Numbered from the stretch's first letter, positions 46,440-48,411 are shown. The stretch: DNA of 64,000 nt from Eledone cirrhosa (GCA_964016885.1 OZ024740.1:202802001-202866000); one strand, 5' to 3'. Program-made: numbers and translations. The notes: generated from the letters alone by a model not told the origin.

Positions 46440-46443
<4 letters not shown>

Positions 46444-48408
46444 ATATTGAAGTTTGCTTGAAGCATTGTGGAATAATAGGTAAATATCTTTAAGTCGTTT
46501 GGAAGCCTCGACAATGCAAATGGGTAAATCTCCGGGTAACAAGATCCGGTGGTGGAGAGAGAGATGTAAGTGGGTGTATGTTGAGATGCGTGGTGTGTAT
46601 AAGACGTGTAGAGGAATGAAGGAAAGAGTATAAAGGATAAAATAAAAATAACAACACGAGAGAGAGTTACCTTGGGAAAGATTTAATTGTCCCTATATAT
46701 TTCGGATTCGCATCCATCAACTGGGGTTTTTTCTGGGGTGGGGGAAAGGTTGTCTGTCGGAAAGGTGCGAAACGCGTCCTCCGCTGTTTGTTGTTTTGAA
46801 TATCTGAGGTATTCAGCAGAGCGCGCGTGCGCGTGAAATGGGGTCGGTCGGGCAGAGGTTAGCGGCCGAATGTGGGAGTGGGGTGGCGCTAGCTGTCAGT
46901 CCATTCTCTGCCTGTTTGTTAAATGTTACTGTGTGTGTGTGTGCGTGTGTTGTTGTCTCGCTTGTGCGTGTGTGTGCGTGTGTTGTTCCCTTGTTCCTCT
47001 GTATTGGCAGTGTAGTATGTTCGTATGGTGGAATGCTACCCTGTGTGTGTGCGTGTGCGTGTGTAGTTGTCTCGTTTGTGTGTGTGTGTGCGTGTGTTGC
47101 TGCATCGTTTAACTTAAACCAGCCACCTCATTTCGCTTCTCTCGGATCGATTGTTTATTTGCGGTGCCAGGCGTTTGATAAAAAGCGCTTCCTTGATACG
47201 TAACGTGCCGACGTTTCGTTCAGTCGCTAGAATTGTGACAATGGGCCTTCCGTCTTTGTTTCCGCATTTATCTATGTATTTCCGGAAAGACGAGGCCCTA
47301 GTTTTAGTGTGTTCCTTGATCTGGATGTGCAAAGGTCGGATTGTGCTACCTATATAGTATTGGTTGCACCTGTCACATTCTATCTTATACACGACGTATG
47401 TGCGTAGGCAACAGTTCGCATGGCGTATCGGGCAGTCTCCGATGGAGCATGCGTCAGTAGATTTCCCGGGTTTCCTGGAGAGGCATCTTCGCAGGGAGGG
47501 GCCCGAGTGGGCCAGGTGGATGTCGAGGCCCTCCCTCCGTATAGCCTTGCAGATAGCGTTGGTGGTATTCTCGCCCAGGTGTGGCATTTTAAGGAAGCAC
47601 TTGCCTTGGGTGTCTCTCTGTCTCTTGTGTCTGGCGTCTCCCACTCTGTCTGTAAGCGAGGCAGGGTACCCGTTCGTCTCCAGCACCTCGAGGAAGCGCT
47701 TTTTATCAAACGCCTGGCACCGTAAATAAACAATCGATCCGAGAGAAGCGAAATGAGGCGGCTGGTTTAAGTTAACAAACGATGCAGCAATACACGCACA
47801 CACACACACAAACGAGACAACTACACACGCACACGCACACGCACACACAGTAGCATTCCACCATACGAACATACTACGCTGCCAATACAGAAGAACAAGG
47901 CAACAACACACGCACACACACACACAAGCGAGACAACAACACACGCACACACACACACAGTAACATTTAACAAACAGGCAGAGAATGGACTGACAACTAG
48001 CGCCACCCCACTCCCACATTCGGCCGCTGACCTCTGCCCGACCGACCCCATTTCACGCGCACGCGCGCTCTGCTGAATACCTCAGATATTCAATACAACA
48101 AACAGCGGAGGACGCGTTTCGCACCTTTCCGACAGACAACCTTTCCCCCACCCCGGAAAAAAACCCCAGTTGATGGATGCGAATCCGAAATATATAGGGA
48201 CAATTAAATCTCTCCCAAGGTAACTCTCTCTCGTGTTGTTATTTTTATTTTATCTTTTATACTCTTTCCTTCATTCCTCTACACGTCTTATACACACCAC
48301 GCATCTCAACGTACACCCACTTACATCTCTCTCTCCACCACCGGATCTTGTTACCCGGAGATTTACCCATTTTGCATTGTCGAGGCTTCCAAACGACTTA
48401 AAGATATT

Positions 48409-48411
<3 letters not shown>
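46440..48411 (-). mobile_element. 5'-truncated Penelope-like element with inverted pseudo-LTR
   Basis: ~715-bp inverted arms 46480-47193 / 47691-48411; GIY-YIG ORF end; (TA)n on both sides; degenerate HHR at 46691-46725 and 48165-48199. Confidence 0.9.
47114..47690 (-). pseudogene. PLE linker + GIY-YIG endonuclease, uninterrupted C-terminal fragment
   Basis: NGYP...CSIGDCPIRHANCC...VVYKIECDRCNQYYIGSTIRPLHIQIKEH...LRIKEALFIKRLAPQIN. The upstream part of the called 301-aa ORF is antisense pLTR. Confidence 0.9.

Follow-up and report, generated by a model that had tools for sequence, protein, structure and literature searches.

Penelope-like elements (PLEs) usually insert as 5'-truncated copies accompanied by an inverted, likewise 5'-truncated copy and a tail of 30-40 bp, with a bias for (TA)n; truncation in itself is usual among their copies (PMC8557442). 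An inverted copy and a tail of this length are described for Penelope of D. virilis, PAc of Anolis and Pen2a of Adineta. In Pen2a (PMC3846280), as in other elements of the Penelope/Poseidon group, the pLTR and tail overlap the start of the ORF, and in this group the pLTR contains a minimal hammerhead. The linker associated with the GIY-YIG endonuclease is described as CX2-5CxxC in Neptune, Nematis and Naiad and as CxCX5C in Hydra, which is without the CCHH motif, and Penelope/Poseidon are described as having no linker (PMC8557442). A preference for (TA)n is tabulated in the same source for the Naiad and Hydra families of Octopus and is hypothesised to depend on the linker; the insertion described here agrees in this respect, and probably in host group, with Hydra-1_Obim, Naiad_Obim, Naiad_Ovul and Naiad_Omin. 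For PAc, in vitro data place two internal start sites of reverse transcription on either side of the tail, and both strands of the target were nicked and extended at AT-rich DNA. The hammerhead of PAc cleaved only when protein was present, and insertion was unaffected when the hammerhead was mutated to a dead form (PMC11167929).

The locus studied here, 46440-48411 of a 64-kb window of Eledone cirrhosa (the window being the whole stretch of DNA that was analysed, 64,000 nt), is a 5'-truncated PLE on the minus strand, lying in a TA microsatellite (Table 1). The initial annotation had placed these boundaries exactly to the base, and its reading of a PLE remnant with an inverted pLTR and a tail inside (TA)n was borne out by both protein and layout. 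On the sense strand the order is (TA)n, inverted 3' copy, truncated ORF, pLTR, tail and (TA)n, so that the two copies stand head to head with both 3' ends pointing outwards into perfect alternating runs. A target-site duplication cannot be discerned at the (TA)n flank 46363-46439. The near-identical arms that had been noticed proved to be 717 and 724 nt in length, to be 97.6% identical over ungapped columns in an alignment of the inverted arms, and both to contain the last 27 codons of the ORF with the stop. They differ by 17 substitutions (14 transitions, six at CpG) and by seven gap nucleotides in four events, and are separated by a unique spacer of 491 nt. The pLTR/3' UTR of the sense arm holds a CA-rich internal duplication of 56 nt in addition to a hammerhead. 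The 40-nt tail, also correctly recognised, is confined to one arm and has a single occurrence in the 64-kb window. For PLEs, those of Octopus included, inverted arms, a tail and (TA)n targeting have all been described before.

Table 1. Positions of the element's features and of a dispersed repeat, counted from the first letter of the window
Feature	Position	Strand	Basis
(TA)n array, element's 3' end (target site)	46363..46439	.	TRF array; perfect alternating run of 53 nt adjoining 46440
40-nt tail, sense arm only	46440..46479	-	arm alignment begins at 46480
First 9 codons of the element's own ORF (next tandem unit), ATG at 46466	46440..46466	-	translation compared with relatives
Sense arm, 717 nt: last 27 codons, stop, pLTR/3' UTR	46480..47196	-	arm alignment
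Minimal type I hammerhead scaffold, core C3 A4 G5 U6 U7 G8 A9	46691..46726	-	descriptor scan
193-codon ORF remnant: RT thumb end, Cys linker, GIY-YIG endonuclease, stop	47114..47695	-	open frame, homologues, model
GIY-YIG domain	47117..47398	-	C107, C110, H129, E169, N181 kept; two lesions
Lesion: Tyr at 140	codon 47278	-	His in 151/152 homologues; last CCHH ligand
Lesion: Gln at 125	codon 47323	-	Arg in 146/151 homologues
Three-cysteine linker C83-X4-C88-X7-C96	47408..47449	-	homologue alignment, codon positions
Head-to-head junction, truncated sense copy / inverted copy	47686..47695	.	read from sequence
Inverted, further truncated 3'-end copy, 724 nt, without tail	47688..48411	+	arm alignment
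Second copy of variant hammerhead, identical	48164..48199	+	descriptor scan, letter search
(TA)n run, other end	48412..48463	.	perfect alternating run, 52 nt
Dispersed repeat copies (window)	14554-14732, 24516-24739, 25166-25339, 31203-31370, 31975-32189		
Dispersed repeat copies (window), continued	43140-43330, 53593-53779, 55175-55348, 61931-62154		

Inverted structures of PLEs are known to trouble assemblies (PMC8557442) and several near-perfect palindromes adjoin (TA)n in the window, so the inverted repeat might instead stem from an artefact of assembly or of fold-back in long reads, or from a rearrangement at the DNA level that later took place between microsatellites. Either is extremely unlikely. 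The substitutions between the arms, mostly transitions and in six cases at CpG, form a mutational rather than a sequencing pattern, the arms enclose a unique spacer, and their asymmetry corresponds exactly to a PLE tail with an ORF start. The divergence of 2.4% between the arms amounts to ∼1.2% per arm if the templates were identical and, with the Octopus clock (a distance of 0.09 equalling 25 My; PMC13282606), gives a rough age of ∼3 My. The insertion would thus be fairly recent, a figure that is silent on the activity of the family, which the initial annotation had taken to be young.

The open GIY-YIG fragment of ∼190 codons reported initially was confirmed as 193 codons. Relatives of the peptide numbered 1132 at E≤0.001 among 1.84 billion representatives, and the homologue counts given here (∼152 rows) rest on the best 150 of these 1132. 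Over the last 190 residues the remnant is 53% identical to residues 667-853 of an 859-aa relative (P0155), in which a single ORF encodes an RT (RVT_1, E 5.8e-15) followed by a C-terminal GIY-YIG domain (E 0.0099), and which gave weak matches only in the PDB, telomerase RT being first (E 0.028). An alignment-based AlphaFold model of the remnant reached a pLDDT of 91.7 and was preferred to a single-sequence fold of the nuclease (pLDDT 41); its top PDB matches were the GIY-YIG domains of I-TevI and UvrC, with Foldseek probabilities of 0.99 and 0.89 and a weak E value of 0.053. Against the Pfam GIY-YIG profile (PF01541), the kind of comparison proposed with the initial annotation, the peptide formally failed, scoring 16.4 bits (E 0.011) where the cut-off is 22.6 bits; this failure is softened by the low scores of most family members on the same profile, 86 of 96 aligned members matching it at E≤0.1. 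Together, homologue alignment and predicted structure point to a GIY-YIG endonuclease. The copy itself is 5'-truncated and the RT core is not present in it, and searches with 158 related proteins or their HMM found no RT match in the 64-kb window, of which this is the only PLE coding remnant.

The Cys-rich linker noted at the outset resolves into three near-invariant cysteines, CX4CX7C, kept in 145/151, 149/151 and 149/152 homologues, and the CCHH motif is conserved among them (C107 in 147/152, C110 in 151/152, H129 in 148/151 and H140 in 151/152). In the motif VVY...YIG...R...EH the arginine that had been noticed is R120; the second conserved arginine, at 125, is a glutamine here. To judge from its spacing, Arg125 is probably the catalytic arginine of GIY-YIG enzymes. 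Arginine, histidine, glutamate and asparagine are listed as catalytic in GIY-YIG (PMC8557442). To judge from these alignments, the nuclease of the remnant is probably inactive. Both lesions fall in the unique spacer and not within the arms, so that they may have arisen after insertion, with a chance of about 0.11.

At the level of the family, an ORF with RT followed by GIY-YIG and the CCHH motif were found, and in the copy itself an inverted pLTR with tail, as in PLEs with a C-terminal endonuclease. The long homologues carry DKGxEF in 24/26 and KTHK in 26/26, and PKIHK in 0/26. Nematis (Nematis_Cr, Nematis_C4 and Nematis_Pp; PMC8557442 Figs S2 and S7) likewise has a C-terminal GIY-YIG with CCHH, its rows show the same DKGxEF and KTHK, and Nematis_Cr has the identical spacing of the linker end, CP-X6-C-X4-V(V/I)Y. 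The remnant differs from Nematis in its three-cysteine CX4CX7C linker without CxxC and in YIGST instead of YIGET. Among 153 aligned rows a 4-7 spacing starts the linker in 97, a 4-6 spacing in 31, and CxxC comes first in one. On the spacing of the linker end and the DKGxEF and KTHK motifs the family appears to be Nematis-like; it was not filed as a member of Nematis since the CxxC is lacking. The use of DKG-EF and KTHK to mark Nematis is our own reading of the alignment in Fig. S7 of PMC8557442, in which they are given no published definition.

Other clades were tried and rejected. Neptune was discarded for the lack of a CX2-5CxxC with a long insert before the last cysteine and of PKIHK. Penelope/Poseidon, described as having no Cys linker and as carrying PKIHK, are excluded by the three near-invariant linker cysteines. 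Hydra shares a reduced Cys linker and a 3' hammerhead with the remnant, whereas its CCHH is reported absent and its linker is CxCX5C; here the CCHH is kept in the family and the linker is CX4CX7C. In Naiad/Chlamys the nuclease is N-terminal, and no canonical hammerhead is described for Naiad, unlike the remnant's family, where the nuclease is C-terminal and followed by stop and pLTR.

The closest named proteins among the matches listed were A0A0L8GYC4 and XP_052834550 (LOC128251599) of Octopus bimaculoides (E 4e-54 and 1.6e-48), annotated as GIY-YIG domain-containing or uncharacterised; an identity of ∼50% makes them a different family. A 38-row tree was built from the query, 36 of its 152 relatives drawn from top matches and long proteins, and the bacterial-contig locus described below, without reference PLEs and with a bootstrap that had not fully converged; in it the remnant and the Octopus bimaculoides proteins fell in one 10-member subclade with support of 100/99, in which the focal peptide has the longest branch (0.63). 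In A0A0L8GYC4 (P0003) the first ∼270 aa, a PLE thumb and nuclease, are joined to an unrelated protein bearing PF05672, and the gene model is probably a mis-annotated fusion. A scan of bacterial and archaeal genome contigs confirmed one locus of 24 candidates, L001 (CBDHEM010000056.1, 1-1356), where a 1.6-kb contig of a Leptonemataceae MAG holds an RT-EN fragment with an open frame that belongs to the same subclade and is followed by A-rich sequence on its 3' side. It is 46% identical at the amino acid level, has the equivalents of Arg125 and His140 intact and is most likely eukaryotic contamination of the MAG; since it ends 280 nt past the stop, before any hammerhead, it has no bearing on the variant hammerhead of the element.

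The last 27 nt of the tail translate as MLQANFNIF. The proteins of the two nearest full-length relatives open with MLQANYKTL and MLQANYNLL, P0155 has the N-terminal MLQAN in common with the tail, and MLQANFNIF was the best of 127,948 six-frame 9-mers of the window against each full-length relative. The tail therefore carries the beginning of the ORF of this same element, the pLTR doubles as the 5' leader of a next unit, and the template was a tandem transcript. The ORF start in the tail is a new observation here, while a tandem template is as in published PLE models. One arm accordingly ends 27 nt inside the next ORF, and the arm without the tail ends 13 nt upstream of the ATG. The tail region showed no stable fold beyond shuffles (z 0.21), unlike the stem-loop reported for PAc (PMC11167929). 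At the junction 5-8 nt are common to both copies and an 8-nt palindrome is present (47686-47693), and the conserved Phe1 codon (Phe in 96/115 homologues) is inside the inverted arm; the shared nucleotides would represent microhomology.

Two courses could lead from such a template to the inverted arms. The two cDNAs may have been started separately and joined head to head, or a single first-strand cDNA may have primed itself by folding back on the 5-8 nt of microhomology and stopped 40 nt short, a tentative alternative that deserves consideration. Complementarity exists between the predicted 3' end of the first strand (47691-47695) and 47190-47194, and a fold-back would go on to write just the sequence that is found next; palindromes at inverted junctions, such as the one present here, have also been read as signs of self-priming (PMC3846280). 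Yet a fold-back gives no reason for a stop exactly at the boundary of the 40-nt tail, a length typical of PLEs and matched to the two start sites of reverse transcription in vitro (PMC11167929), and the microhomology suits the joining of two cDNAs equally well. The joining of two cDNAs explains the tail boundary better, while the junction fits both.

The hammerheads of metazoan PLEs are minimal and of type I, with the consensus NNN CUGANGAH G..C GAAAN palindrome NUH NNN (PMC4209133 supplement). The motif in the pLTR shares with them the short helix I, the extra base after A9, G10.1-C11.1, the palindromic helix III and the AU-rich 3' flank, and differs from them in U4A and A6U. It was parsed as helix I CCC, CAGUUGA, an extra U, helix II GGAU-GCGA-AUCC, GAA, the palindrome AUAUAU, A17 and GGG. 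The core that had first been proposed, TTGAT with helix II directly after it, was abandoned: under it G8 and A9 are missing and helix I contains a mismatch, whereas CAGUUGA keeps every consensus position other than the two changed ones, in both arms. The motif is letter-identical in the arms and was found nowhere else in the window at ≤3 mismatches (two matches; 0 in 100 shuffles). No family in the window reached its gathering score in Rfam, and even at E≤10 the element gave no hammerhead match, so a custom descriptor was needed for minimal hammerheads; it allowed two core mismatches and was written after the motif had been seen. In the 64-kb window it returned 11 matches (eight canonical, two variant and one U3-A8), against 0 in 2000 shuffles of the UTR and three in 20 shuffles of the whole window. 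Since the variant is identical in arms that differ at 17 sites, it was already in the template and predates the duplication of the arms, in agreement with the earlier suggestion that it predates insertion. The predicted cleavage site is 254 nt from the 3' end of the element. The hammerhead of PAc overlaps the start codon (PMC11167929), whereas here it lies 227 nt upstream of the ORF start.

By analogy with characterised hammerheads the U4A/A6U form is probably inactive. Natural core variants include U3-A8, U4C and A6C, the last two with reduced activity (PMC3088659, PMC7151607), and pairwise mutagenesis of a type III hammerhead, monomeric, protein-free and in these respects unlike the minimal type I motif here, found no rescue of the CUGA turn except by a C3-G8 swap (PMC9901934). 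The combination of U4A and A6U is absent from the text and supplements of the hammerhead literature searched, a scope outside which the main catalogue of PLE variants (PMC5785218) lies. Counting against inactivity are the protein-assisted cleavage of PAc and the pattern of the changes, two transversions in the core amid helices that are all intact, which is tidy for decay; the chance of ≥2 changes among 13 core sites was 0.14 at an assumed divergence of 5% and 0.01 at 1.2%. It is possible, though doubtful, that CAGUUGA is the consensus of an active family in which the fold is kept as a non-cleaving or protein-assisted element, serving RT-EN binding or folding. All three helices, the C3-G8 pair, the extra base after A9, G10.1-C11.1, the GNRA loop, the palindromic helix III and the NUH are intact, the variant is present in both arms, and the PAc hammerhead needs protein to cleave (PMC11167929). 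Set against this, a single copy only was seen, a degenerate donor mobilised in trans would look alike, the long branch of the focal peptide suits a decayed donor lineage, if weakly, and the region folds no better than shuffles (z 0.82). In the minimum-energy cofold of two copies, pairing was via helix II and not helix III. A further reading, that a cephalopod PLE family now actively spreading has CAGUUGA as its consensus and that the motif can still cleave, either as a dimer or aided by the element's protein, is very improbable; if true, a Nematis-like lineage that has been little described, with a three-cysteine linker that directs it to (TA)n, would possess a natural hammerhead lacking the uridine turn of CUGA.

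Priming on (TA)n by a (UA)n end released through hammerhead cleavage was considered and discarded: the end of the element lies 254 nt beyond the cleavage site, and the two places where GAAA runs into (TA)6+ both lack an upstream core. A palindromic (AU)n helix III, which matches the target repeat, was observed in 8 of the 11 descriptor matches (16806, 19619/19763, 40566, 48646, 49502 and 46723/48167). It may reflect AT-bias only, given that Hydra is described as targeting (TA)n without an (AU)n helix III (PMC8557442) and that the element ends away from its cleavage site.

The window contains further inserts of related appearance. Non-coding inserts with canonical CUGANGA cores adjoin (TA)n at 9106-9668, 16711-16852, 19566-19816, 40445-40634, 48548-48744 and 49434-49597, and several of the canonical inserts are inverted hairpins with a one-sided extension. 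Those at 19566-19816 and 48600-48700 are related (72%), and those at 16711-16852 and 49456-49597 form one family, 97% identical in opposite orientation. A U3-A8 minimal hammerhead (UUGAAAA; core at 40243) with 4-bp helices I and II and a palindromic helix III lies at 40233-40280 (+) in a short insert between (TA)n runs, a variant reported for Schistosoma PLEs (PMC4209133). To the left of the element (43898-46362) are nested inverted pairs, 43898-43990/46224-46316 and, inside it, 44083-44249/45491-45657, each starting on (TA)n and carrying CUGANGA...GAAA (46302 and 45556/44184, respectively). The region 43.4-50 kb is thus a pile-up of PLE-like remnants in TA arrays, which includes the focal element and three inserts to its right. 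Near-perfect palindromes with almost no spacer lie beside (TA)n at 32680-33036, 34723-34803, 49619-49875 and 52925-53097, and may be either head-to-head PLE ends of very short length or fold-backs from assembly. Also present are a dispersed SINE-like repeat of about 170-220 nt in at least nine copies, 67-93% identical (Table 1), and long, GC-richer trinucleotide arrays of the TTG/CTG type (25435-26784 and 29861-30825), which could encode poly-Gln tracts on the minus strand.

The initial annotation took the element to be a coding template for the system, which would make it the partner that mobilises the non-coding hammerhead hairpins of the window. In favour of such a role, no other PLE coding remnant lies in the 64 kb, and several neighbours share its layout, TA ends and (AU)n helix III. 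Even so the proposal is quite implausible, for the copy has no RT, it bears Gln125 and Tyr140 in its nuclease, and blastn of the element against the rest of the window (word 7, E≤0.01) found no match to any other non-microsatellite insert. The neighbours, moreover, have canonical cores and a longer helix II, and PLE families are many in Octopus, 31 being recently active in O. vulgaris (PMC13282606). No sister copy of the element was found in the 64-kb window. Of the proposed link between hairpins and PLEs, what stands is the shared architecture (inverted arms, a (TA)n end and minimal hammerheads) and what falls is descent from the focal family. TA-directed insertion was likewise upheld across the families of the window, though not for the focal family. 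Ends at most 10 nt away from (TA)6+ were found in 10 of 16 inverted pairs, compared with 2.7% of random positions; the pairs were our own selection, from which matches to the dispersed repeat, pairs that were short or of low identity and parts of the focal arms were omitted, and one of them is two distant copies rather than one hairpin. TA targeting is thus supported as a habit shared across the families of the window, as already published for PLE clades.

The protein identity, the outward 3' ends in (TA)n, the ORF start in the tail and the two-change hammerhead in both arms are what was observed, and from them we infer the steps of a dead-on-arrival insertion of a Nematis-like PLE with a C-terminal endonuclease, an account that we consider likely as a whole. 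The RT-EN protein of a full-length member would have bound a tandem transcript comprising the ORF end, the pLTR and the start of the next ORF, and nicked the (TA)n array. Reverse transcription would have begun internally on this RNA, at one site 27 nt into the next ORF and at another, close by, 13 nt before the ATG, and both cDNAs would have stopped early and been joined head to head via the 5-8 nt of microhomology. The template RNA would already have carried the U4A/A6U hammerhead, which most likely cleaves very slowly or not at all; this would not have blocked insertion, hammerhead cleavage being dispensable for this step. With no RT and a nuclease that is probably inactive, the copy would mobilise nothing, and the other hairpin inserts would be remnants of other families with the same habit. 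The account draws on one copy of the family and on an analogy with PAc, a Poseidon-clade element with a differently placed hammerhead.

The element offers a clean worked example of PLE insertion anatomy. By its sequence signature, the ORF start in the tail extends the model of internal initiation, established in vitro with a Poseidon element, to a Nematis-like family. The conserved CX4CX7C linker of some 150 related proteins is unlike the linker motifs listed for the named clades and, like the variant hammerhead, may be of interest to specialists. The variant hammerhead was evidently retrotransposed, in line with cleavage being unneeded for insertion. If the variant is family-wide, it would provide a natural test of the purpose of the PLE hammerhead, which is called unresolved in the literature consulted.
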